From Escherichia coli (GTDB lineage: Bacteria > Pseudomonadota > Gammaproteobacteria > Enterobacterales > Enterobacteriaceae): a stretch of DNA of 11,988 nucleotides. This document shows, piece by piece, positions 1 through 11,988 of the stretch. How positions within the stretch are numbered: position 1 is the first letter of the stretch; every line of letters starts with the position of its first letter. Under the pieces are notes generated by a model, which worked only from the letters and a program-made list of their open reading frames with translations, was not told where the DNA came from and did no database searches. The position numbers and the translations under genes were made by a program. Location of the stretch: assembly GCF_041248615.1 (NCBI RefSeq), contig NZ_CP158424.1. The stretch is one strand, 5' to 3'.

Positions 1-422
1 TACGCACTCAATTCCGGAGGGGGAGTGTAGGGAAGTGCCTGATTTATTTTATGTACGCGCAAAAATGAGATAGCTTTTATTAGATATCATCAGCCCTGTC
101 TGCATCAGTCAGCTCCTTACAGCGTCAGGAGTACTGATGAAGGGGGGAACGTTCCTGCGTTTTTGCAAAGGCAATCCGGCTAGAGGCTTTACTACGCAGA
201 AACATTCCGGACAACTTTTTACCCCAGTGTAACCTGTAGATCAACCAGATTTTGTTGCAGTAAAAATACAGTGGTTTCGCATTTGTAATATTTGTCACAA
301 AAATAACATCAATATGTTGGTTTTCTGTTGATAAATGGTTTGGTCGCTGATTATGATTTCCTTGTACTCCACAGGAGTACAGTCATGTGCATACTAAAAT
401 CCGTGTTTTCGATAAAATTAAG

Positions 423-449
423 GCCGTGATACAGAATCACGGCTTTTTT
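423..449 (+). terminator. Putative rho-independent terminator
   Basis: Hairpin GCCGTGAT (423-430) / loop acaga / ATCACGGC (436-443) followed by T6 (444-449). Read directly from sequence. Confidence 0.5.
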
Positions 450-617
450 CTTGCCTGAAAGGATCATTTACGCTAGAAGAGTTATGAGCGCGTCTCTGGT
501 GTTTGTTGCAGGGATAATATCTAATATGGGGCACCGGAAACGCGCTCTCCCTTCGTATACAGAATGCCCATTAATTTCTTCTTCCTGATTTTCCAGACAT
601 ATATTCTTGTGTAAATT

Positions 618-702
618 AAAAAACAGAGCGTGTTTCTGGTGTGAATTTGTTGGCTACAATGTGCATTGTTGTTCTGTGTTCCAGAAACACGCTTCTTTTT
701 TG
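618..702. repeat. Long inverted repeat with about 41-bp spacer, A-run upstream and T-run downstream
   Basis: Left arm aaaaaaCAGAGCGTGTTTCTGG (618-639) pairs with right arm CCAGAAACACGCTTCttttttg (681-702); 13-bp perfect core AGCGTGTTTCTGG. Could be a large-loop terminator, sRNA structure or protein-binding site. Confidence 0.45.
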
Positions 703-826
703 AGATGCACATCAGTCTGATACAAAGAGGGATGGTTGTATCTGTGTCAGAGTTTTGTTATTTTTTTGTATGCTCAGTTATTGATGGTTAATAATATCAA
801 GAAAATCAGCAAGTTCCTTACGCTAC

Positions 827-851
827 CCCTCTTCAGTAGAGGGTTTTTTTT
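827..851 (+). terminator. Rho-independent terminator
   Basis: Stem CCCTCT (827-832) / loop tcagt / AGAGGG (838-843) followed by T8 (844-851). Confidence 0.6.
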
Positions 852-995
852 ATCTGGTACGCCGTAAAACCCGGTCCTTCAGGGCGTAGAGGATGTCAAA
901 AATTTCTTCGAAAGGTAATACCCGATATCCCGAAGGAATAACAACGAAGAGGATACAGATAAAGACATAATACGGATAAGTCATCAGGAGGAAGT

Positions 996-1133
996 ATGTC
1001 TTGGGTGAAACTGACGGAAGCAGAACGTAAGTGTAGTTGCGATGATTATGCTGCACAGGTTGCACAGTTAAAGTTGTCCGGCAGAGATAAATTGCCACGG
1101 GAAGTTAGAGAAAAGTGCGGGAAAATGTCTTAA
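996..1133 (+). CDS. Candidate small protein (45 aa), unknown function
   Basis: ATG 996 preceded by AGGAGG (986-991); translates MSWVKLTEAERKCSCDDYAAQVAQLKLSGRDKLPREVREKCGKMS, stop TAA 1131-1133. Below the ORF-track length cutoff. A 34-codon ORF (1136-1240) follows 2 nt later in another frame. No homolog recognised. Confidence 0.3.
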   Translation: MSWVKLTEAERKCSCDDYAAQVAQLKLSGRDKLPREVREKCGKMS

Positions 1134-1394
1134 GAATGATTCTGGAAGAACGAAAAGTAAGAAGCGCAAAGGCTATGAGGGCAAAAGAGTATCGTGCCGC
1201 AGCGAATACTTTTACCTGGCAGCCTGTACGGCGCAGGTGAATAGACATTCCCCTGACTCATCCTGCTCCCCTTGGCGGCGAAGGGGATTAATCCCTATCC
1301 TGTAACTTCTATTTTGTGGAATCGAAAACAGCCGAAAATTGTGAAAAAAAACCGTTTCAGTCGTCTCAGTAAGGAAATTCGCTTGTGATTCACC

Positions 1395-1545
1395 TGGATG
1401 CATAGGTATGCATAAGGTTAAAATTTATCAGGCGCGATCGCGGTAGTTTTTCGGGGGGGTTGTTGCCATTTTTACCTGTCTGCTGCCGTGATTGCGCTGA
1501 ATGCATTTCAGCGGTGCGTATAATTAAGGGATTATGGTAAATCCA
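1395..1545 (+). other. cer-like XerCD site-specific recombination site (plasmid multimer resolution) with upstream accessory region
   Basis: Core 1513-1542 GGTGCGTATAA-TTAAGGGA-TTATGGTAAAT matches the ColE1 cer XerC-arm/central-region/XerD-arm organisation as I recall it (one mismatch in the XerC arm). The about 120 bp upstream resembles cer accessory sequence (PepA/ArgR region). Accessory boundary is approximate. Confidence 0.75.
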
Positions 1546-1546
1546 C

Positions 1547-1966
1547 TTACTGTCTTCCCTCGTAGCCATCGAGATAAACCGCAGAAATCGTCTCAGCCAG
1601 CAGCCTGGATTTTTTCGGGGTAAGGTCTTTGCTGCGGTAATCAGTACCCGCAAATTGAGTTGTGCCCCGGAGTGAGTTTAAAAATTCCTGGCTGTGAAAC
1701 TGCTGAATGCGTTGCTGCACATCACTCCGTGATTTTCCTGTCGCTTTATCCTTTGCTCCCATATCCCAGAACTGCCGGAAAAAAGGCACCATCATTCGTG
1801 TTGTGTCGGCCTTCTGGGTGGAAAAGTTAGGATCAAAACCATCGTCTGATGCATAAACGTAATGCCGGGTATGTTGTTCCACACTGCCCTTTGGCGTGCA
1901 GGCTGTCAGGACCGTTGCCGCTGTCAGCAGGGCGATAAGATACAGTGTGCCGCCGGAACGTCTCAT
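1547..1966 (-). CDS. Putative lipoprotein (139 aa), function unknown
   Basis: ATG at 1966 with AAGGAG 7 nt upstream (complement of 1974-1979). N-terminus MRRSGGTLYLIALLTAATVLTAC is a signal peptide with lipobox LTAC. Hydrophilic mature part. Lies immediately downstream of the HTH gene on the same strand. Confidence 0.75.
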   Translation of the reverse strand: MRRSGGTLYLIALLTAATVLTACTPKGSVEQHTRHYVYASDDGFDPNFSTQKADTTRMMVPFFRQFWDMGAKDKATGKSRSDVQQRIQQFHSQEFLNSLRGTTQFAGTDYRSKDLTPKKSRLLAETISAVYLDGYEGRQ

Positions 1967-2049
1967 GAGTGTCTCCTTACCTTTAAATCTTTGTACTCAG
2001 TGACTTATATTTAACCGCTGACTATCTTATCATCACTTGCAGCCGGTGC

Positions 2050-2487
2050 TCACCGGCTGAACAGTCTGGCCCAGAATCCCCGTTTTTTTTCCTGCTCCAG
2101 TGCCTGCCTGAGCTGCTCTATCTCTTTATGTAGCTGTTCCCGTTCGGCTTCTTGGCGCCGGCGTTCCGTATCCTGTGCCTGTTTGTCCTCAAGCATCAGT
2201 GTCAGGCATTGTTTCAGCTCATTCAGCTCCCGGAGAATGCGTTCTGTCTGCTGATCATGTGGATTTTCTGCCTGTCCCACAGTGTGCCTTTCTTGTGTCT
2301 CATTTTGCTTTAATTCGCCGTATGCCCGGATCAGTTCACTGGTTTCAAACTCCCTTCGTCCGTCCTGGCTGGTACGGTAACTGACAAGACCTGAGCGCAT
2401 ATCACGGTAAAACTGTGAACGCGATCTTCCAGTCATTTTCAGTGCGTCCTGGAGTGTGTGCCATGCCATAAAGTTACAGTGTCCCAT
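2050..2487 (-). CDS. Putative DNA-binding protein: AlpA/Xis-like HTH N-terminus with C-terminal coiled coil
   Basis: Segment TLQDALKMTGRSRSQFYRDMRSG has a helix-turn-helix pattern (xTGxSRSxxYR) seen in AlpA/excisionase-type HTH proteins; C-terminal 60 aa is charged heptad-like (EAEREQLHKEIEQLRQALEQEKK). Start uncertain: ATG 2487 or ATG 2469, neither with a strong SD. Divergent from the colicin promoter. Confidence 0.65.
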   Translation of the reverse strand: MGHCNFMAWHTLQDALKMTGRSRSQFYRDMRSGLVSYRTSQDGRREFETSELIRAYGELKQNETQERHTVGQAENPHDQQTERILRELNELKQCLTLMLEDKQAQDTERRRQEAEREQLHKEIEQLRQALEQEKKRGFWARLFSR

Positions 2488-2635
2488 AGGTGTCTCATCT
2501 CATGGTTTCAGTAAAACATAATGAGGTCTGAGAACGGTAATGTTTGCGCCGGTTTTTGTGGTATCCGGCGGGAATAGCGCGTGGTGTGAGAGACTGTTTT
2601 TTTGATCGTTTTCACAAAAATGGAAGTCCACAGTC

Positions 2636-2664
2636 TTGACAGGGAAAATGCAGCGGCGTAGCTT
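2636..2664 (+). promoter_or_regulatory. Colicin operon sigma70 promoter
   Basis: TTGACA (2636-2641), 17-bp spacer, TAGCTT (2659-2664). Arrangement and surrounding sequence closely resemble the colicin E1 promoter region as recalled. Confidence 0.75.
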
Positions 2665-2669
2665 TTATA

Positions 2670-2700
2670 CTGTACATAAAACCAGTGGTTATGTGTACAG
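2670..2700 (+). promoter_or_regulatory. Dual overlapping LexA (SOS) operators
   Basis: Box 1 CTGTACATAAAACCAG (2670-2685) fits CTG-N10-CAG; box 2 GTGGTTATGTGTACAG (2685-2700) overlaps by 1 nt. This tandem arrangement immediately downstream of the -10 is typical of colicin promoters. Confidence 0.85.
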
Positions 2701-2745
2701 TATTTGTTTTTAATGGTTTGTTTTAAAAGTCAAAGAGGAATGAAT

Positions 2746-4602
2746 ATGCCGGGGTTTAATTACGGTGGGTATGGTGACGGTACTGGCTGGAGTTCTGAAA
2801 GTGGTGGTCCAGCTCCAGGCGGTGGTATGCATGGAAATAGTGGAGGCCAGCGCGGAGATAACGCAAACAGTAGCAATTCTGTGAGTCAGCAGATTTCTGC
2901 CATTCAGAATGATCAGAAACTTAAACAGAAAGTGGTGAATATGCTGATTGCTGCGAGAAAAATGAATCCTGAAGCAAAAATGATTCTGGGAAGTATTGCT
3001 CCTTCTGGTGTTATGCAGGTCACCATTGAGGGGGTAACCTCCACTCAGGCCAGGCAGCTTGGTTTGGGAGGGCTGGTCATGGGATATAACGCTTCTGGTG
3101 TTATTGGGGCTGTGGGCGAAATAGACACCGGTCACCGCCTTAATGCATCAGGAGCAAGTACTCCCGGAAGCGAAACTTCTGTGGAGAGTTTTGTGAACGG
3201 ACAGAAACCAGCCGGAGAATGGCATGCTGTGGCGAAGGACAGCTGGACAGGGGCTGGTCCAGTGAATGTAGGGCTGGTTAATAACGCCATCAAAAGTGTC
3301 CGGATTATCAAAAAAGGCTATGTGACGGGCGTTCTCACGCCAGAAGAGGTGATGAATAAAGCAGAGTACAAAGCAATGCGGCAGGCTTTCGATTCCCTTC
3401 CACTGGCAAAACAGGGAGAGGCTGTCAGACAGATTGTTGCTGCTTGGAGTCTGGCATATCAGGATTTTCCGGTAAATCTGAAAAAAGAGATGGGGCGTGT
3501 CACTGAACGGATTGTTGATGCTATTAACCTGGCGCTCATTCTTAATCAGACAGAGTCCCGTTTGTCGGAATCACAAAAGAATGTTGATGTAGCGAACCAG
3601 ATTATCAGTGATACAGTAAAAGCTATTAATGATGTAAATAAGAAAATAGCAGAAAAACGAAATCAGCAGGTATCACTGACTGATTTGATGAATAAAAAAC
3701 AAAAAGAGGTCGAAGATCTTAAAAAGATATTCAAAAATCACTCTTATCACCGTATTCGTGATGCCCAGAGGGAATATGATGATGCCCGAAATAAATATGC
3801 TTTACTGGCCAGTGATATTAATGCGCTGCAGGCACAGGTTTCCGGACTGACGGCAAGGAAACAGCAGGCAGAACAGAACAAGGCAGCAGCAGAAAAAGCA
3901 AAGGCAGATGCAGCGGCGAAAGCTGCAGCAGAAAAAGCGGCTGCTGAAGCGAAAGCAAAGGCTGAAGCTGAAAAAGCCAGAAAGGAAGCAGAGGAAAAAG
4001 CAAATGACGAGAAGGCTGTTCTGACAAAAGCCAGTGAAATTATCATCAGTGTTGGTGATAAGGCTGGGGAGTATCTGGGTGATAAATATAAAGTTCTTTC
4101 TCGTGAGATAGCAGATAATATCAAAAACTTTCAGGGCAAAACGATTCGTAGTTATGATGAGGCGATGGCTTCTGTCAATAAACTGATGGCTAATCCTGAT
4201 CTTAAAATTAATGCCGCCGACAGGGATGCAATTGTGAATGCTTGGAAAGCATTTGATGCAGAGGATATGGGGAATAAGTTTGCCGCGCTGGGTAAGACGT
4301 TTAAAGCCGCAGATTATATGATGAAGGCAAACAACGTCCGGGAGAAGAGTATCGAGGGGTATCAGACCGGAAACTGGGGGCCGCTGATGCTGGAGATTGA
4401 GTCCTGGGTATTGAGTGGTATTGCTTCTGCTGTGGCGCTATCATTTTTCTCAGTCGCTGTTGGTTCATTATTTATTACAGCGGGCGTGTCTGTAACGGCT
4501 GTGGGACTTATGGGCATTATTTTTGCTGGCTTTATCGGTGCGCTGATTGATGATGATTTTGTTGATAAGTTAAATAACGAAATTATTCGCCCTGCGTATT
4601 AA
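2746..4602 (+). CDS. Pore-forming colicin, colicin A/U/Y family (618 aa)
   Basis: Track ORF 2704-4602 begins at a TTG; best start is ATG 2746 (GAGG 2735-2738, 7-nt spacer). N-terminus MPGFNYGGYGDGTGWSSE plus Gly-rich segment matches the colicin A translocation-domain start as I recall it. Ala/Lys/Glu-rich helical linker. C-terminal about 200 aa (NFQGKTIRSYDEAMAS ... NWGPLMLEIESWVLSGIAS ... hydrophobic helical hairpin ... NNEIIRPAY) matches the colicin A-subgroup pore-forming domain. Length is close to colicin U/Y. Confidence 0.93.
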   Translation: MPGFNYGGYGDGTGWSSESGGPAPGGGMHGNSGGQRGDNANSSNSVSQQISAIQNDQKLKQKVVNMLIAARKMNPEAKMILGSIAPSGVMQVTIEGVTSTQARQLGLGGLVMGYNASGVIGAVGEIDTGHRLNASGASTPGSETSVESFVNGQKPAGEWHAVAKDSWTGAGPVNVGLVNNAIKSVRIIKKGYVTGVLTPEEVMNKAEYKAMRQAFDSLPLAKQGEAVRQIVAAWSLAYQDFPVNLKKEMGRVTERIVDAINLALILNQTESRLSESQKNVDVANQIISDTVKAINDVNKKIAEKRNQQVSLTDLMNKKQKEVEDLKKIFKNHSYHRIRDAQREYDDARNKYALLASDINALQAQVSGLTARKQQAEQNKAAAEKAKADAAAKAAAEKAAAEAKAKAEAEKARKEAEEKANDEKAVLTKASEIIISVGDKAGEYLGDKYKVLSREIADNIKNFQGKTIRSYDEAMASVNKLMANPDLKINAADRDAIVNAWKAFDAEDMGNKFAALGKTFKAADYMMKANNVREKSIEGYQTGNWGPLMLEIESWVLSGIASAVALSFFSVAVGSLFITAGVSVTAVGLMGIIFAGFIGALIDDDFVDKLNNEIIRPAY

Positions 4603-4611
4603 TTGAGAGTC

Positions 4612-4641
4612 GAAAGGTAGTCAGGAGGACTACCTTTCTTT
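4612..4641. terminator. Bidirectional hairpin terminator between convergent colicin and immunity genes
   Basis: Perfect 11-bp stem GAAAGGTAGTC (4612-4622) / loop AGGAG / GACTACCTTTC (4628-4638) followed by TTT. The immunity stop codon (4630-4632) lies inside the stem. Confidence 0.7.
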
Positions 4642-5154
4642 CCAGAGTTTATATGCTATTACTGGTTGGAGGCAGAGGGCGTAAGTTATGAAAAAAGAGC
4701 AATAATACAGGCAGATATAAAAGATAAGCAAAGTAAGATCGTTCTCAGACATCAATCGAACAGGTCTTCCCGATGTTGTTAACTCGAAGTTATGCCACAA
4801 GAAAAAATAAGCATAAAAAATACACAAAAAGGGGGACAGTATACAAGCTGTTATGATTTTTTTTCTGTCTGTTATTTTGGTGGTTCTTGTGTGTTTGAAT
4901 AGCATGATGAAAGCTATAAATGCTAATAATGGTGCGCTCTTACCGTAGATATCCATCACCTTTGTCATCACAGGGTTATATGAAGAAATTACTGAAGGTA
5001 TATTTTGAGTATTATCGAAAATGATGCGGATTAAATAGAAGTTGGGGTTTGATGTATAAGTTATAAAAATAATAATTAATGGGATTATACCCGCGAAAGT
5101 AATCAAAAAAAGCATCCTGTTTAAATCTTTGTTGTAAGTGTACTCTTTTTGCAT
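4630..5154 (-). CDS. Colicin immunity protein, A-type (four-TM inner-membrane protein, 174 aa)
   Basis: Antisense to the colicin gene, as in pore-forming colicin operons. Several hydrophobic segments. Motifs SSYNPVMTKVMDIY and NFELTTSGRPVRLM match the colicin A immunity protein (Cai) as recalled. GGGAG 10 nt upstream of ATG 5154. Confidence 0.9.
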   Translation of the reverse strand: MQKEYTYNKDLNRMLFLITFAGIIPLIIIFITYTSNPNFYLIRIIFDNTQNIPSVISSYNPVMTKVMDIYGKSAPLLAFIAFIMLFKHTRTTKITDRKKIITACILSPFLCIFYAYFFLWHNFELTTSGRPVRLMSENDLTLLIFYICLYYCSFFITYALCLQPVIAYKLWKER

Positions 5155-5273
5155 TGGTATAATACTCCCGGTTTTTCATTGTTATTAATTTAGTTGTTGA
5201 TATGTATAAGCATATCATGCTGTGCGAGTAATGGTCACCCTAATATTAGGGGTATGAGTTAATGAGGGGATAT

Positions 5274-5414
5274 ATGAAAATGATATTATCAGGAGGGATG
5301 CTTGTCTTGATGGCTTTGCTATCAGGCTGCCAGGCTAATTATATTCGCGATGTTCAGGGAGGGACCGTCGCACCATCCTCCTCTTCTGAACTGACGGGAA
5401 TCGCGGTTCAGTAG
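5274..5414 (+). CDS. Colicin lysis (bacteriocin release) lipoprotein, 46 aa
   Basis: Not in the ORF track (below length cutoff). ATG 5274 with GAGGGG 3 nt upstream. [46 protein letters not shown]: signal peptide, lipobox LSGC, and mature start [14 protein letters not shown] nearly identical to the colicin A lysis protein as recalled. Confidence 0.88.
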
Positions 5415-5422
5415 AAAAGATC

Positions 5423-5449
5423 AAAGGATCTTCTTGAGATCCTTTTTTT
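5423..5449 (+). terminator. Rho-independent terminator after the lysis gene
   Basis: AAAGGATCT (5423-5431) / loop tcttg / AGATCCTTT (5437-5445) with T-run 5443-5449. Same element is found upstream of the RNA II promoter in pMB1-type replicons. Confidence 0.7.
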
Positions 5450-5462
5450 CTGCGCGTAATCT
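5434..5462 (+). promoter_or_regulatory. RNA II (replication primer) promoter
   Basis: TTGAGA (5434-5439), 17-bp spacer, TAATCT (5457-5462); same sequence as the pMB1/ColE1 RNA II promoter. Confidence 0.75.
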
Positions 5463-5469
5463 GCTGCTT

Positions 5470-5579
5470 GCAAACAAAAAAACCACCGCTACCAACGGTG
5501 GTTTGTTTGCCGGATCAAGAGCTACCAACTCTTTTTCCGAAGGTAACTGGCTTGGAGGAGCACAGTCACCAAAACCTGT
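5470..5579 (-). ncRNA. RNAI: RNA I, antisense copy-number and incompatibility regulator
   Basis: Complement of the first about 110 nt of RNA II. Stem-loop 1 (AACCACCGCTACCAACGGTGGTT) is conserved with pMB1; distal stem-loop sequence (5553-5579) diverges. Ends are approximate. Confidence 0.8.
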
Positions 5580-5585
5580 CTTTTC

Positions 5586-5615
5586 AGTTTAGCCTTAACC
5601 GGCTCATAACTTCAA
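5586..5615 (-). promoter_or_regulatory. Putative RNA I promoter
   Basis: On the minus strand: TTGAAG (complement of 5610-5615), 18-bp spacer, TAAACT (complement of 5586-5591), placing the start near 5579. Same layout as the pMB1 RNA I promoter. Confidence 0.5.
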
Positions 5616-5989
5616 GACCAACTCCTCTAAATCAGTTACCAGTGGCTGCTGCCAGTGGCGCTTTGTCGTGTCTTACCGGGTTGGACTCAAGACGATAGTT
5701 ACCGGATAAGGCGCAGCGGTCGGGCTGAACGGGGGGTTCGTGCACACAGCCCAGCTTGGAGCGAACGACCTACACCGAACTGAGATACCAACAGCGTGAG
5801 CTATGAGAAAGCGCCACGCTTCCCGAAGGGAGAAAGGCGGACAGGTATCCGGTAAACGGCAGGGTCGGAACAGGAGAGCGCACGAGGGAGCTTCCAGGGG
5901 GAAACGCCTGGTATCTTTATAGTCCTGTCGGGTTTCGCCACCTCTGACTTGAGCGTCAATTTTTGTGATGCTCGTCAGGGGGGCGGAGC

Positions 5990-6005
5990 CTATGGAAAAA
6001 CGCCA
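5990..6005 (+). other. ori: Origin of replication (RNA-to-DNA transition point), ColE1 type
   Basis: TATGGAAAAACGCCAGC corresponds to the pMB1 primer cleavage and DNA start site. Exact nucleotide not determinable by eye. Confidence 0.65.
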
Positions 6006-6224
6006 GCGGCGCGGCCTTTCGTTGCCCTTTGCCTTTTTGCTCACATGTTCTTTCCGGCCTTATCCCCTGATTCTGTGGATAACCGTATTACTGCCTTTGA
6101 GTGAGCTGGCACCGCTCGCCGCAGCCGAACGACCGAGCGTAGCGAGTCAGTGAGCGAGGAAGCGGAAGAGCGTCGGAAGTTGCATTTTCTCCTTACGCAT
6201 CTGTGCGGCATTTCACATCGGCTA

Positions 6225-6330
6225 TGGTGCACTTTTCATACAATCCGCACTGATGCCGCATGACTAAGCCAGTATACACTCCGCTATCGCTACGTGACTG
6301 GGTCATGGCTGCGCCCCGACACCCGCTAAC
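6225..6330. other. oriT: bom / oriT region (origin of transfer for mobilisation)
   Basis: Near-identity to the pBR322 bom region as recalled (...TAAGCCAGTATACACTCCGCTATCGCTACGTGACTGGGTCATGGCTGCGCCCCGACACC...). Located between ori and rop as in ColE1. Nick site not assigned. Confidence 0.6.
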
Positions 6331-6414
6331 ACCCGCTGAAGCGCCCTGATGGGCTTGTCTGCTCCCGGCATCTGCTCACTGACAAACTGTGACCGTCTCC
6401 GGGAGCTGCATGTG

Positions 6415-6606
6415 TCAGAGGTTTTCACCGTCATCCCCGAAACGTGCGAGGCAACTGCGGTAAAGCTCATCGGCGTGGTCGTGAAGCGATTCACAGATGT
6501 CTGCCTGTTCATCCGCGTCCAGTTCGTTGAGCTTCTCCAGCAGCGTTAATGTCTGGCTTCTGATAAAGCGGGCCATGTTAAGGGCAGTTTTTTCCTGTTT
6601 AGTCAC
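6415..6606 (-). CDS. rop: Rop/Rom, RNA I-RNA II pairing modulator (63 aa)
   Basis: GTG start at 6606 with GGAGG upstream; VTKQEKTALNMARFIRSQTLTLLEKLNELDADEQADICESLHDHADELYRSCLARFGDDGENL is the ColE1/pBR322 Rop sequence as recalled. The track ORF extends further upstream without an initiator. Confidence 0.93.
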   Translation of the reverse strand: MTKQEKTALNMARFIRSQTLTLLEKLNELDADEQADICESLHDHADELYRSCLARFGDDGENL

Positions 6607-6637
6607 TGATGCCTCCGTGTAAGGGGGATTTCTGTTC

Positions 6638-6994
6638 ATGGGGGTAATGATACCGATGAAACGCGAGAGGATGCTCACGATACGGGTTACTGATGATGAA
6701 CATGCCCGGTTACTGGAACGCTGTGAGGGTAAACAACTGGCGGTATGGATGCGGCGGGTCTGCCTGGGTGAGCCGGTTGCCCGTTCCGGGAAGCTGCCGA
6801 CACTGGCACCGCCGTTACTGCGTCAGCTGGCCGCCATCGGGAATAACCTGAATCAGACAGCGAGGAAGGTGAACAGCGGGCAGTGGTCTTCCGGTGACCG
6901 GGTTCAGGTAGTGGCCGCACTGATGGCCATCGGGGAGGAGCTGCGCCGGCTGCGTCTGGCCGTCAGGGAACAGGGGGCGCGGGATGATAGTTAA
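6638..6994 (+). CDS. mbeC: Mobilisation protein MbeC/MobC (relaxosome accessory protein)
   Basis: MLTIRVTDDEHARLLERCEGKQLAVWMRR... matches the MobC N-terminal remnant retained in pBR322 and the ColE1 MbeC family. Divergent from rop. Start could be ATG 6638, 6656 or 6671; 6638 has the best SD spacing. Confidence 0.85.
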   Translation: MGVMIPMKRERMLTIRVTDDEHARLLERCEGKQLAVWMRRVCLGEPVARSGKLPTLAPPLLRQLAAIGNNLNQTARKVNSGQWSSGDRVQVVAALMAIGEELRRLRLAVREQGARDDS

Positions 6995-8549
6995 GTTTCA
7001 TGCCAGGGGAAAAGGTGGTGGCAGTGGTCCGGTTGATTACCTGCTGGGAAGGGAGCGTAACCGGGAAGGGGCAACGGTGCTTCAGGGTAATCCGGAAGAA
7101 GTCCGGGAACTCATCGATGCCACGCCATTTGCGAAGAAATACACGTCAGGTGTTCTGTCGTTCGCGGAGAAGGAGCTGCCGCCGGGAGGACGTGAAAAAG
7201 TGATGGCGAGCTTTGAGCGTGTACTGATGCCCGGTCTCGAAAAAAATCAGTACAGCATCCTGTGGGTGGAGCACCAGGACAAGGGACGGCTTGAGCTGAA
7301 TTTTGTCATTCCGAACATGGAGCTACAGAGCGGAAAACGCCTCCAGCCGTACTACGACCGGGCAGACAGGCCGAGAATTGATGCCTGGCAGACGCTGGTT
7401 AATCACCATTACGGGCTGCATGACCCCAACGCCCCGGAGAACCGCCGGACGCTGACTCTCCCTGATAACCTGCCGGAAACGAAACAGGCGCTTGCTGAGA
7501 GCGTCACACGCGGGATAGACGCTCTTTATCATGTCGGGGAGATAAAAGGCCGTCAGGATGTGATTCAGGCGCTCACAGAGGCGGGGCTTGAAGTGGTCAG
7601 AGTGACGCGAAGCAGCATCAGTATTGCAGACCCGAACGGCGGGAAGAATATCAGGCTGAAAGGAGCATTCTATGAGCAATCTTTTACAGACGGGCGCGGA
7701 GTTCGAGAAAAAGCTGAAAGAGAGAGCCGCATCTACAGAGAAAATGCTGAACGACGAGTTCAGGAAGCTCGAAGAATCTGTAAACAGGGAACTGACCTCA
7801 AACGAATCTTTAATCAGGAACGCTATCAACGCCCATACAGCAGCCCTGAAAGAACTTCTGGAGAGGTATCAGAAAACGACCGTCAGCACGATGGACACAC
7901 ACTGGCAAACCGTGCTGAAAATGAGCGTGAAACGCTGGCTGTGGCTGATTATCGTCTCAGTGCTGATGTTTGCCACGACCGGGAGTCTGCTGTGGTACCA
8001 GGGCATGAAGATAAACGCAAACATGAATATTCTCCGCGAGCAGAAAGAGAGTCTGGAGAAGCTGAACGCGAAGACATGGGGCGTGCGTTATCACGAGGAC
8101 AGCAACGGACGTTTTCTGGTGTTGCCGAAGGGGATGAAAGCCGAAACGCACTGGACGGAGGACAACGGCAAACTGAACGCAGTGAGACTGGTACAGGAGT
8201 GACAGAGCATGACGGAGCTGGAAAAACATTTGCTGAACGCCTTAGAGCAACTGCAACAGGACTATATGCAGCGGCTGAACGAATGGGAGAGCGCCTTCGT
8301 GGAATTGCAGAAGATGTTTTCGCTTACGCAACGGGACAACGCGATGCTGAACGAGCGGGTCATGCAGTTGAGTCAGCAGGTGCAGCACTTGAGCGAGCGG
8401 ACAGAACGCTTGAGCCAGTTATACAGCGAGAACAGGAGATAAGGGACGAACGGCTGATACAGGAACGCGAACATGAGTTATCCCTGGAGCGTGAGCGCCA
8501 TCTGGAAATACAGGAACGGACACTGGATGGCCCGTCGCTGGGATGGTAA
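6984..8549 (+). CDS. mbeA: Relaxase MbeA/MobA (ColE1-type, 521 aa)
   Basis: N-terminus MIVKFHARGKGGGSGPVDYLLG... is characteristic of ColE1-family relaxases; start overlaps the mbeC stop; C-terminal half is Arg/Glu-rich as in MbeA. Confidence 0.92.
   Translation: MIVKFHARGKGGGSGPVDYLLGRERNREGATVLQGNPEEVRELIDATPFAKKYTSGVLSFAEKELPPGGREKVMASFERVLMPGLEKNQYSILWVEHQDKGRLELNFVIPNMELQSGKRLQPYYDRADRPRIDAWQTLVNHHYGLHDPNAPENRRTLTLPDNLPETKQALAESVTRGIDALYHVGEIKGRQDVIQALTEAGLEVVRVTRSSISIADPNGGKNIRLKGAFYEQSFTDGRGVREKAERESRIYRENAERRVQEARRICKQGTDLKRIFNQERYQRPYSSPERTSGEVSENDRQHDGHTLANRAENERETLAVADYRLSADVCHDRESAVVPGHEDKRKHEYSPRAERESGEAEREDMGRALSRGQQRTFSGVAEGDESRNALDGGQRQTERSETGTGVTEHDGAGKTFAERLRATATGLYAAAERMGERLRGIAEDVFAYATGQRDAERAGHAVESAGAALERADRTLEPVIQREQEIRDERLIQEREHELSLERERHLEIQERTLDGPSLGW
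7672..8202 (+). CDS. mbeB: MbeB/MobB mobilisation protein, nested in an alternative frame of mbeA
   Basis: ATG 7672 with AGGAG upstream; 176 aa with a predicted TM segment (WLWLIIVSVLMFATTGSLLW). Nested arrangement matches ColE1 mbeB. Confidence 0.75.
   Translation: MSNLLQTGAEFEKKLKERAASTEKMLNDEFRKLEESVNRELTSNESLIRNAINAHTAALKELLERYQKTTVSTMDTHWQTVLKMSVKRWLWLIIVSVLMFATTGSLLWYQGMKINANMNILREQKESLEKLNAKTWGVRYHEDSNGRFLVLPKGMKAETHWTEDNGKLNAVRLVQE
8209..8442 (+). CDS. mbeD: MbeD/MobD (77 aa coiled-coil protein), nested within mbeA
   Basis: ATG 8209 with AGGAG 9 nt upstream; helical, Gln/Leu-rich sequence; position directly after mbeB as in ColE1. Confidence 0.7.
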   Translation: MTELEKHLLNALEQLQQDYMQRLNEWESAFVELQKMFSLTQRDNAMLNERVMQLSQQVQHLSERTERLSQLYSENRR

Positions 8550-8769
8550 CCAAAGACAGGCTAAAATGTTGTCAGCGCGTTTCCGGTGCATTTTTTTGGA
8601 TAATGGTTGGTTCGGGGCACCAGGAACGAGCTTCAGTCAGGCCTTGCTGAAAACACAGGAACGCGTTAAAACGCATACGGACGCGTTTCTGGCGGTCAAA
8701 AACCACGGGGTTAGTGTGGGTAGTGTGTATAGCAACAGGAGCCTGGAACGCGTTCCGCTTCTTCTGTAA
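8473..8769 (+). CDS. Hypothetical ORF overlapping the mbeA 3' end (possibly mbeE-like)
   Basis: ATG 8473 with AGGA 7 nt upstream; 98 aa; extends 220 bp beyond the mbeA stop. No recognisable motifs. Confidence 0.3.
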   Translation: MSYPWSVSAIWKYRNGHWMARRWDGNQRQAKMLSARFRCIFLDNGWFGAPGTSFSQALLKTQERVKTHTDAFLAVKNHGVSVGSVYSNRSLERVPLLL

Positions 8770-9498
8770 TAGACGCCAGAATGCGTTTAATGCTTCTTCT
8801 GATGGTATCAGAGAGGAGCAGCTTGAGTTATTCCTGTTGGCCACAGAGCGTAATTATCTCCTTTTCAGATCCACACGGGGATACGTCAGAGTAGGAACTG
8901 AGCAAGGATTACTGAAAGATACTTTTTGCCAGAAAAAAATCCTCATACATGATGAGGATAAAGTCTTAAAGGTCCATTCTATGGAGTGTCGGATTGAAAA
9001 ATTTCTCCGGATGATATCCTTCACAGTTTAAATGTGATTTCAACCATAAGTTTTTTATGGATTTTGTTAAATAAAAAAGAATTGAGTCGTGTTTCTGATA
9101 TGTCTTAATATAATAAGTGAACAGTTATAAAATAATTGTGTTATATTTATTGTGAGTTTGATGTTATGTTCTGCATAAATAACTGTAGTTTAGAATATTA
9201 TTCTTTTATATTTATAGCTGTGAGATGATAAATTATAAGTGTTCTTTGTGCTATAAAGAACCCCCCGTATAAGGGGGGGAAAGATGGGTTTACTTCTTTT
9301 TAGTCCATGCCCTGGTGAGCTACATGAAGCTCGACACTACAGTAAAAATTTGGCAGTTTTTTTGAACTTTACGCAAGCAATTTATTTACATTGTAAAGAA
9401 AACCCCCTCAATTTGCGTATTACCGTGAAGGAGATCGGTGAGTAACATCGATGGAGATCGGTTCGTGTCACTTTCACAGAACCGTTTTTAAATTACCT

Positions 9499-10248
9499 TC
9501 ACTGATCTCCTTCGGTCAACGGAGATTGTATTTTCCGCATTGATTCTCCTTTAAGTTCGATCTTGATACTGCCATGAACCAGTCGATCTAGGATGGCATC
9601 CGCATGTGTGGAGTCTCCGATCATTTTGTACCAGTTTTCCACCGGCAACTGGCTCACTACGATGATTGAGCCTCGTTGGTACATCAGATCCACTATTTCC
9701 AGCAGGTCGCTACGCTGTTCTGATGAGAGAGGTTCCAGCCCCCAGTCATCCAGAAGCAGCAGATCGCTATTATTCAGCCTGGTCAAAAGTTTGCTGTATC
9801 TTCCATCAGCATGCCCCTGATAGCACTGTTCCATCAGCGCTTTAAGGCGATAATAGTAGACCTTGTATCCCTGTCGGCAGGCATTATGACCAAGTGCACA
9901 TGCCAGGAACGTTTTACCGCTGCCGGTGGCCCCGGTCAGTAAAATATTTTGTTTCAGGGTTAACCAGTTTCCCTGACTGAGTGAACGGATGAGGGCCCTG
10001 TCCAGCCCTCTATTGTTACGATAATCCAGCTTTGATAACTCAGCATTAAGTCTGAACCGTGCATGTTTGATCAGACGCTCTGCCTTCCTGTTTTCACGGC
10101 AGGTTAGTTCTTCTGCTGTCAGTAATGACAGGCGTTCTTCGAAGCCCAGCTCCTGGTATGTGCCCGGCTGAGCAAGTTGCTTTTTAAGCGCATCACGGAA
10201 GCCGGTGAGTTTAAGTGCGGTCAGTTGTTCGTAAAGATGATTCATCAT
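9499..10248 (-). CDS. istB: IstB-like ATPase helper of IS21-family transposition (249 aa)
   Basis: Walker A motif GATGSGKT and Walker B-like LLLLDDWG; size and position directly downstream of istA. Confidence 0.92.
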   Translation of the reverse strand: MMNHLYEQLTALKLTGFRDALKKQLAQPGTYQELGFEERLSLLTAEELTCRENRKAERLIKHARFRLNAELSKLDYRNNRGLDRALIRSLSQGNWLTLKQNILLTGATGSGKTFLACALGHNACRQGYKVYYYRLKALMEQCYQGHADGRYSKLLTRLNNSDLLLLDDWGLEPLSSEQRSDLLEIVDLMYQRGSIIVVSQLPVENWYKMIGDSTHADAILDRLVHGSIKIELKGESMRKIQSPLTEGDQ

Positions 10249-10259
10249 TGGATCCCGTA

Positions 10260-11801
10260 TCAGTGGTAATACTCACTGCCGCGTACGTTTTCGTGTTCCA
10301 TCGTGGATAACAGATCTGGTTTTGGATCCTGAACAGGTTGTTTATCCAGACCTTTTTCCAGGATCGATTTAATACCTGACAGACGCCATACCTTTGTTTT
10401 CAGAGCTCTTGCACATGCTGCATTAAGTCTGGCTTTACTGTATTTTTTATGAAGGTTCAGGAGTCCAAGGCAGAAGCGATAGCTTTGTTCCGGATGTGGA
10501 CGAGAGTTCAGTATATGAAGCACATAACTATGAGTTTCACTGCCTATGTGCCCCGCCCATTCCAGAAGACGCTCTGGCGTCCAGGTGGCATGCTGTCGAT
10601 GAGCTTCAGGCATGTGCTCGTTGCGGGTACTGTAGCCATAAGTACGCTTGCGCGGGTGCACAGCAACCTCCTGCCCCTGATTGAAGAGTCTTACCAGTTC
10701 TCCGGAGATCCATGCTTCCAGTTGCTGGCCTAACAGCGAACATGGAACCGAGTAGTAATGTTTGTCGATTTCCACGTGGTAATCGGCATGAACTCTGACT
10801 TTCTTCACCAGGGTGTAACTGTAACTGGCTTCAGGAAGAGGCTTCAGTGCGGGTTTATCAAGCTGGATGAAGAGTTCTGCACGTGAATAACCCAACTTCT
10901 GCATTATTTTGTTATTCAGTCTTTCCAGCAACTCCCGAATGCGCTGATTAAGCGATGCAAGGCTGTAGAAGATCTCATGCCTGATTCGGGCCATGATCCA
11001 GCGTTCAACAACCTGAACGCCAACTTCAGCTTTGGCTTTATCTTTCGGTTTACGTGGCCGCGCAGGCAAAACTGCGACATTATAATGCTCAAGCATCTGC
11101 TGGTAGGTAGGGTTAACGTCAGGATCATACTTACATGCCCTGGATGTGGCGCTTTTCAGATTGTCCGGAACAACAAGTTCAGGAACGCCACCCAACCACT
11201 GGAAGCAGCGAACATGACTCATCACCCAGTCTTCAAGCTGCTGAGACCAGGTGGCCTCTGCCCATGTGTAACTTGATGCCCCGAGAACAGCTACGATGAC
11301 CTGAGCAGTTCTTATTTCTCCGGTCTCAGGGTCGGTAACGCCAACGGTAGGTCCACAGTAATCAACGAAAAGTTTTTCGCCAGCTTTATGTACCTGACGC
11401 ATTGATGGTGAAGTGGTTTTGAGCCATTCACGGTACATCCGGCAGTAATGGTTATAGCTGTAAAAACCGCCTGGATTACGCTCACAGTATTCTTCCCAGA
11501 GTAGCTGCAGCGTCACGCATTTATTACGCAGTTCCCGGTGTACTGTAGCCCAGTCAGGCAGAGAGTGCTTCTTCATCTTAACCTGGGTCTGAAGGAACGC
11601 ATGTTTTAGTTTTGTATCATCCCATCCTGTAGGTAAGGGCCACTGCTTTATGCCAAGTTGAGCCGCCCGATTAGCATATCTGGATACAACGGAAGGGGAG
11701 ATTGCAAGACTACGACCAATTTGTCGATGGCTGAGTCCAACACCGTATTTAAGCCTAAGAATTTCTTTAAGTTTTCTCATAGAAATTGGAACTGTTGGCA
11801 T
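10260..11801 (-). CDS. istA: IstA transposase, IS21 family (513 aa)
   Basis: N-terminal HTH (LKEILRLKYGVGLSHRQIGRSLAISPSVVSRY) followed by a long catalytic region; AGGA 5 nt upstream of ATG 11801; 11-bp gap to istB. Confidence 0.92.
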   Translation of the reverse strand: MPTVPISMRKLKEILRLKYGVGLSHRQIGRSLAISPSVVSRYANRAAQLGIKQWPLPTGWDDTKLKHAFLQTQVKMKKHSLPDWATVHRELRNKCVTLQLLWEEYCERNPGGFYSYNHYCRMYREWLKTTSPSMRQVHKAGEKLFVDYCGPTVGVTDPETGEIRTAQVIVAVLGASSYTWAEATWSQQLEDWVMSHVRCFQWLGGVPELVVPDNLKSATSRACKYDPDVNPTYQQMLEHYNVAVLPARPRKPKDKAKAEVGVQVVERWIMARIRHEIFYSLASLNQRIRELLERLNNKIMQKLGYSRAELFIQLDKPALKPLPEASYSYTLVKKVRVHADYHVEIDKHYYSVPCSLLGQQLEAWISGELVRLFNQGQEVAVHPRKRTYGYSTRNEHMPEAHRQHATWTPERLLEWAGHIGSETHSYVLHILNSRPHPEQSYRFCLGLLNLHKKYSKARLNAACARALKTKVWRLSGIKSILEKGLDKQPVQDPKPDLLSTMEHENVRGSEYYH

Positions 11802-11988
11802 AGGTATCCTTTACCGGAATGGCAAAAGATACAGATCAACACACCTGTGAAGTTCCAATAACATTGATGGAGATCACTGAATAACAAAATGAGTCAAAAG
11901 TGATCTCCATCGATGTTATTCAGCGATCTGTTCAAATGTTATTACCCGATCTCGATGGAAGTTATTGAGTGATCTCCTTTCATGAAAA

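Follow-up and report, generated by a model that had tools for sequence, protein, structure and literature searches.

To which replicon, and to which incompatibility specificity, should an origin be assigned that follows ColE1 and pMB1 closely on both sides of a short central stretch and departs substantially from both within it? This question is raised by the origin region (5404-6010) of the 11,988-bp stretch of Escherichia coli DNA analysed here (the window, i.e., the whole stretch at its full length). The window is a rotated copy of plasmid p14408_3 of E. coli NRZ14408 (NZ_LT599828.1), to which it is 100% identical over the full length (window coordinate = p14408_3 record coordinate + 569). 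Besides a ColE1-type origin with rop, the plasmid has the colicin R operon (cra, cri, crl), exclusion genes, the mbe mobilisation genes, and ISEc12. This IS21-like element occupies 9414-11988 and continues at 1-6, with istB (9499-10248) and istA (10260-11801) on the minus strand; the colicin R plasmid NZ_CP100534.1 (9400 bp), which is without ISEc12, covers only window 7-9413 and is 100% identical otherwise. No literature specific to the colicin R plasmid replicon was found; one colicin R plasmid is listed by Branger et al., in the MOB-RNA type 1 family.

Three elements that characterise a ColE1-type replicon were found, i.e., a three-hairpin RNA I of about 108 nt, an RNA II homologous up to the ori/RNase H site, and Rop. 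The rop (rom) gene lies on the minus strand at 6415-6606 and is annotated as WP_000165985.1, an accession shared with the Rop of ColE1; its product binds the RNA I/RNA II kissing complex. Rop/Rom occurs in ColE1 and pMB1 and is optional across the ColE1-type family. No plausible Rep gene was found on the plasmid. RefSeq does annotate a 37-aa "replication initiation protein" (WP_071699851.1) at 5632-5745 on the minus strand, inside the RNA II transcript, and equivalent tiny ORFs are also annotated in ColE1 and many relatives; since ColE1-type replicons depend on the RNA polymerase, RNase H, and DNA polymerase I of the host and need no Rep protein, this ORF is probably a propagated annotation artefact.

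Promoters and transcript ends were placed by homology to the mapped elements of ColE1. The promoter of RNA II, the pre-primer, lies on the plus strand at 5434-5462 (-35 TTGAGA, 5434-5439; -10 TAATCT, 5457-5462) and is identical to that of ColE1 and pMB1; its assignment follows the mapped ColE1 promoter. By alignment to ColE1 604-1190, RNA II would start on the plus strand at about 5470 and run as far as the RNA/DNA switch in GGAAAAACGCC (A-run 5996-6000), which makes it about 530 nt long and, with both ends placed by homology, roughly 25 nt shorter than that of ColE1. Its origin-proximal part together with ori (5665-6010, plus strand) is of the ColE1/pMB1 type, and the ori motif CCTATGGAAAAACGCCAGC is found at 5989-6007. 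The colicin lysis gene crl ends at 5414, and a terminator-like hairpin that follows it (5423-5445) overlaps the -35 hexamer of the RNA II promoter, so that read-through from the SOS-induced colicin operon could enter the promoter of the replication primer.

RNA I, the antisense repressor, is placed on the minus strand at 5472-5579 (108 nt), its 5' end being the A of ACAGGUUUU at 5579. The Rfam RNAI family (RF00106) matches 5474-5577 on that strand with 66.9 bits (gathering score 47), and the transcript is predicted to fold into three hairpins behind a 9-nt tail, at -47 kcal/mol (z = -5.8 against shuffled sequences). Stem-loop III (5480-5504), with loop GUUGGUAGC, is identical to that of ColE1 and one base different from that of pMB1, and forms the RNA I terminator together with a U-run, in agreement with a terminator-like site called at 5504-5480. 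Stem-loop II (5511-5539, loop UUGGUAG) agrees in stem and loop with both ColE1 and pMB1, and in its loop alone with p15A. Stem-loop I (5542-5570), with loop CCUCCA and 5' arm GGUGACUG, is of the p15A type, whereas ColE1 has the loop CUGCUGA and the arm GGUAUCUG. The single-stranded 5' tail (5571-5579) reads ACAGGUUUU, compared with ACAAGUUUU in p15A and ACAGUAUUU in ColE1. The RNA I promoter is assigned by homology to 5587-5615 on the minus strand (-35 TTGAAG, 5615-5610; -10 CTAAAC, 5592-5587; 17-nt spacer); its -10 hexamer is of the p15A type, ColE1 having CTACAC, and p15A shares this C-to-A variant of the -10 (PMC5935869). A generic sigma-70 scan of 5380-5720 called no promoter; the homology-based placement was kept since the -10 hexamers of the known ColE1 promoters are weak.

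Replication control would, on this anatomy, follow the scheme described for ColE1 (PMC4485353, PMC8683028, PMC9458437), in which kissing, nucleation, and duplex formation succeed one another. RNA II, transcribed from about 5470, would prime leading-strand synthesis near 5996-6000, as in a ColE1-family theta replicon. RNA I, running from 5579 to 5472 on the opposite strand, would kiss RNA II through its three hairpin loops. Stable pairing would then nucleate at the 5' tail of RNA I, which is where the passages of PMC4485353 that summarise Tomizawa (1984-1990) let it start, and the full duplex would zip up with the aid of Rop, whereupon RNA II would misfold and no primer would form. The predicted RNA I is a hybrid, with loops II and III of ColE1 and loop I and tail of p15A. 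RNA I acting in trans is the incompatibility determinant (PMC3478263). Considered as a whole, anatomy and mechanism make it very probable that this is a working ColE1-family, antisense-controlled theta replicon with a mosaic origin.

The mosaic becomes apparent when the origin is aligned to ColE1 (NC_001371) and CloDF13 (NC_002119), both taken from PLSDB, and to the p15A and pMB1 origins, whose sequences were verified in the same database: those used for p15A (240/240) and pMB1 (285/285) are identical in PLSDB records, engineered and shuttle plasmids among these. The names p15A (after pACYC184) and pMB1 for these database-verified sequences are our own attribution. Three blocks can be distinguished. 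Block A (5404-5553), with the RNA II promoter, the RNA II start, stem-loops III and II, and the 3' arm of stem-loop I, matches ColE1 at 149/150 and pMB1 at 119/120 positions, and p15A at 98/148. Block B (5554-5664) comprises the loop of stem-loop I with its 5' arm, both the tail and the promoter of RNA I, and about 50 bp that are part of RNA II only; it matches p15A at 103/111 positions without a gap, and ColE1 at 80/111 with a 25-nt gap and pMB1 at 79/111 with a 23-nt gap. Block C (5665-6010) returns to ColE1 (338/346) and pMB1 (341/346), compared with 277/329 and 17 gap positions for p15A. In terms of identity, block B stands at 72% to ColE1, 93% to p15A, and 95.9% to many 4-kb plasmids, and block C at about 98% to ColE1/pMB1; mismatches to ColE1 are strongly enriched in block B relative to its flanks (Fisher p = 2e-17).

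A preliminary description of this DNA, made from its letters, had already called the replicon ColE1-type, and the Rfam RNAI match, the three-hairpin fold, and the 98-99% identity to ColE1 outside 5554-5664 bear this out. It had placed a divergent stretch at about 5553-5660, which is right to a few bases, and the alignment confirms that this stretch takes in part of RNA I together with its promoter. The part is, however, smaller than supposed: the divergent block reaches not several RNA I stem-loops but one, stem-loop I, besides the 5' tail; it holds only 26 of the 108 nt of RNA I and extends for 85 bp outside it. The near-identity to pMB1 claimed for the remainder holds in the counts given above, but the conserved part is nearest to ColE1, with which it shares an A in loop III at 5495.

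How did the p15A-type block come to lie between ColE1-type flanks? The left crossover would fall within AAGGTAACTGGCTT (5541-5553) and the right one at or just after CCAGTGGCTGCTGCCAGTGG (5639-5658), both conserved across the family, and crossovers in such short conserved sequences are the expected product of homologous exchange between co-resident relatives. Plasmids pEA24_5 and J-8 p1, which have the same RNA I type, have a right-hand boundary at which the ColE1 type resumes a few bases sooner, which points to repeated exchange at this spot. Divergence in place, by accumulated point mutations or by diversifying selection on RNA I and without any recombination, might be considered since loop I does vary (CUGCUGA, CCACCA, CAUUCAA, CCUCCA) among plasmids with ColE1-type stem-loops II and III. 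However, the whole 111-bp block, including its indel pattern, is that of p15A-type plasmids (93-96%) and its flanks are those of ColE1 (98-99%); these block identities effectively refute point-mutation divergence, and we regard any such origin in place as very improbable. It is even less credible that errors of assembly or sequencing produced the mosaic as a chimera of two co-resident plasmids. Beyond the general possibility and the "linear" flag of the PLSDB record nothing speaks for such an artefact, and it is refuted by the recurrence of the identical junction-spanning 201 bp in at least 10 further plasmids, which were sequenced independently and come from various hosts and countries. The origin is therefore, with a high degree of confidence that concerns anatomy and mechanism together and not compatibility, a natural recombinant, in which a p15A-type middle of 111 bp is set between a ColE1-type left part and a ColE1/pMB1-type remainder. 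The exchange may have run in either direction, with either plasmid type as the donor of a given block.

The recombinant allele is not confined to this plasmid. Its exact 201 bp (5465-5665) occur in about 11 PLSDB plasmids, among them colicin R plasmids, a 7.4-kb plasmid of Shigella boydii, and a 5.9-kb plasmid of an impala E. coli, and near-identical versions (97-98.5%) occur in about 14 more, which belong to E. coli, E. albertii, Klebsiella, and Salmonella; this makes about 25 in total. The hosts of the exact and near-identical alleles in PLSDB are E. coli, E. albertii, Shigella boydii, Klebsiella, Salmonella, and Enterobacter. In 5,426 complete E. coli genomes the allele is present in 6-8 records. 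Block B by itself is very common (hundreds of plasmids at ≥95%, e.g., a 4018-bp family), and so is the ColE1/pMB1-type left part. Other combinations of stem-loops were also encountered. In the colicin Y plasmid NZ_OZ040965.1 (8554 bp), stem-loops III and II resemble those of CloDF13, and stem-loop I and the region downstream are of the ColE1 type; a co-resident 7323-bp plasmid combines ColE1-type stem-loops II and III with the loop I CAUUCAA; the loop I CCACCA is combined with ColE1-type stem-loops II and III in J-8 p0 and pU90-3. As several combinations exist in the family, such shuffling is routine, and the window is one of its ordinary results. Judged by sequence, the allele is an established natural variant of a well-known family, a p15A-type module in a ColE1 backbone, and not a novel sequence.

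Some of these co-resident plasmids show features of their own. J-8 p0 (NZ_CP047007.1) has a tRNA-Lys(CUU)-like gene at 413-501, just upstream of its RNA II promoter (ARAGORN; Rfam, 46.2 bits; RefSeq). J-8 p2 (NZ_CP047009.1, 3373 bp) carries rop and mbe genes, gave no Rfam RNAI match and none of the four conserved ColE1-origin motifs searched for, and may be truncated or misassembled. pU90-2 (NZ_CP068037.1) is an 18.7-kb, head-to-tail dimer-like colicin E1::IS66 plasmid with RNA I at 8995-9098 and 18353-18457. Its two origins have different RNA I alleles, one that of classical ColE1 and one with the loop I CCACCA, which is the allele of the co-resident 5.6-kb pU90-3; this sharing suggests recombination between co-resident ColE1-type plasmids.

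Compared with the classical replicons, the plasmid shares with ColE1 the RNA II promoter, stem-loops II and III, the RNA I terminator, the 340 bp proximal to the origin (98%), Rop, the mbe genes, and the MOB-suite cluster. It differs from ColE1 in stem-loop I (loop and 5' arm), in the tail of RNA I and the -10 of its promoter, and by the 25-nt gap in RNA II. The same features are shared with pMB1 (pBR322/pUC), which is slightly closer than ColE1 in 5665-6010 and differs in the same divergent block and, in addition, in one base of loop III (G in pMB1). With p15A (pACYC) and p15A-like small plasmids (e.g., the 4018-bp plasmids of Salmonella, E. coli, and Klebsiella) it has in common the loop I CCUCCA, a near-identical tail, the RNA I promoter, the lack of the extra ColE1 segment, and the loop II UUGGUAG; it is unlike p15A in the stem of stem-loop II, stem-loop III, the RNA II promoter region, and 5777-5870, all of which are ColE1-type in the window. 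CloDF13 shares the general ColE1-type architecture and an Rfam RNAI match, but all three of its loops are different and the RNA I identity is only 78/114.

At the level of loops, II and III are thus shared with ColE1/pMB1, and I and II with p15A. The preliminary description reasoned that loops identical to those of a known replicon, once aligned and folded, would refute a distinct specificity. Such identity was found loop by loop but not for the set of three: each single loop is already known, and only the combination is unmatched among the replicons compared, i.e., ColE1, pMB1, p15A, and CloDF13. A member of the ColE1/pMB1 group would have all three loops and the 5' tail the same, whereas here loop I and the tail differ; a member of the p15A group would likewise agree in all three loops and the tail, whereas stem-loop III and the stem of stem-loop II differ and the tail is 1 nt off. 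The divergence from ColE1 RNA I amounts to 8 substitutions and 1 indel, all in the first 27 nt (103/112 or 92% identity, with a perfect run of 84 nt), while in classical pairs that are mutually compatible RNA I has 78-84 of about 114 positions in common and perfect runs of 12-16 nt.

The ColE1/pMB1 and p15A groups are mutually compatible. With two loops common to ColE1/pMB1 and a different two to p15A, the allele could, therefore, be either orthogonal to both groups or a "bridge" that interferes with both. When the RNA I of the window is paired with the RNA II of ColE1, loops II and III are predicted to kiss perfectly; the mismatches are loop I, two central positions of the tail, and one position in the stem of stem-loop I. 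With one loop and the nucleating tail mismatched, cross-inhibition of ColE1/pMB1 would probably be weaker, but is unlikely to be zero. The computed energy of the duplex with the target is -192 kcal/mol for ColE1 and -222 kcal/mol for the cognate partner, and since the heterologous energy stays high, substantial cross-talk with ColE1 is possible.

It is against this background that the compatibility of the plasmid has to be weighed. The reading proposed in the preliminary description, that the specificity is distinct, would in its full form mean that the changes in stem-loop I, in the tail, and in the RNA I promoter allow stable co-existence with ColE1 and pMB1, and also with p15A; we consider the chances for and against it to be balanced. 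Single-base loop changes can create new incompatibility groups, according to PMC9458437 and to that part of PMC4485353 which relates Tomizawa and Itoh (1981), and here loop I differs from that of ColE1 at most positions, the tail has two central mismatches, and the duplex of the 5' 38 nt is weakened from -78 kcal/mol to -48 kcal/mol with the ColE1 partner (computed). Moreover, E. coli J-8 holds both p1, which is of the window allele type, and p0, which agrees with p1 in loops II and III but not in stem-loop I and the tail. Co-residence in an assembly is, however, weak evidence, as in U90 pU90-3 and one of the origins of pU90-2 share an identical RNA I, and J-8 is the only informative case found among the examined accessions that neighbour allele-bearing plasmids. 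These neighbours were mostly large IncF, IncX, and IncK plasmids, which are uninformative, as is E. albertii BIA_24, in which all loops differ between the plasmids. In a directed-evolution study, furthermore, compatibility could not be predicted from loop divergence alone (PMC9458437), and the plasmid retains loops II and III of ColE1, the stems of these loops, and the ColE1 Rop.

These same retained features would underlie the reverse reading, that the plasmid functionally belongs to the ColE1/pMB1 incompatibility group because Rop-stabilised kissing of loops II and III suffices. The 84-nt perfect match to ColE1 RNA I includes two loops, Rop is identical, and MOB-suite places the plasmid in rep_cluster_2350, as it does ColE1; pMB1 and ColE1 themselves differ by a base in loop III and yet count as a single group (PMC9458437). 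On the other hand, the stable duplex begins at the 5' tail and stem-loop I, both mismatched here, according to the literature summarised in PMC4485353, and the co-residence in J-8 also argues against a shared group. We hold membership to be rather doubtful, while conceding it real weight. On balance we lean slightly towards practical compatibility with ColE1/pMB1, a property that is not readable from sequence. The more general notion, that RNA I stem-loops are exchangeable modules and that recombination at the short conserved sequences between them generates incompatibility specificities in a combinatorial manner, can be put forward only tentatively and seems to us unlikely.

Sequence typing groups this plasmid with ColE1, yet its control RNA is a hybrid of two groups that are compatible by the textbook. 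Whether the allele proves to be orthogonal to both or a bridge between them, the result would reveal the number of matching loops that cross-inhibition requires in vivo, and whether it also requires the 5' tail. Should specificity not be set by stem-loop I and the tail, the plasmid would represent one more allele in a highly reticulate, well-understood family. If, however, they suffice to set it by themselves, typing schemes would under-split the ColE1-like plasmids, colicin and resistance plasmids would be carried together more easily than these schemes predict, and the allele would offer a natural template for designing additional compatible vector origins.
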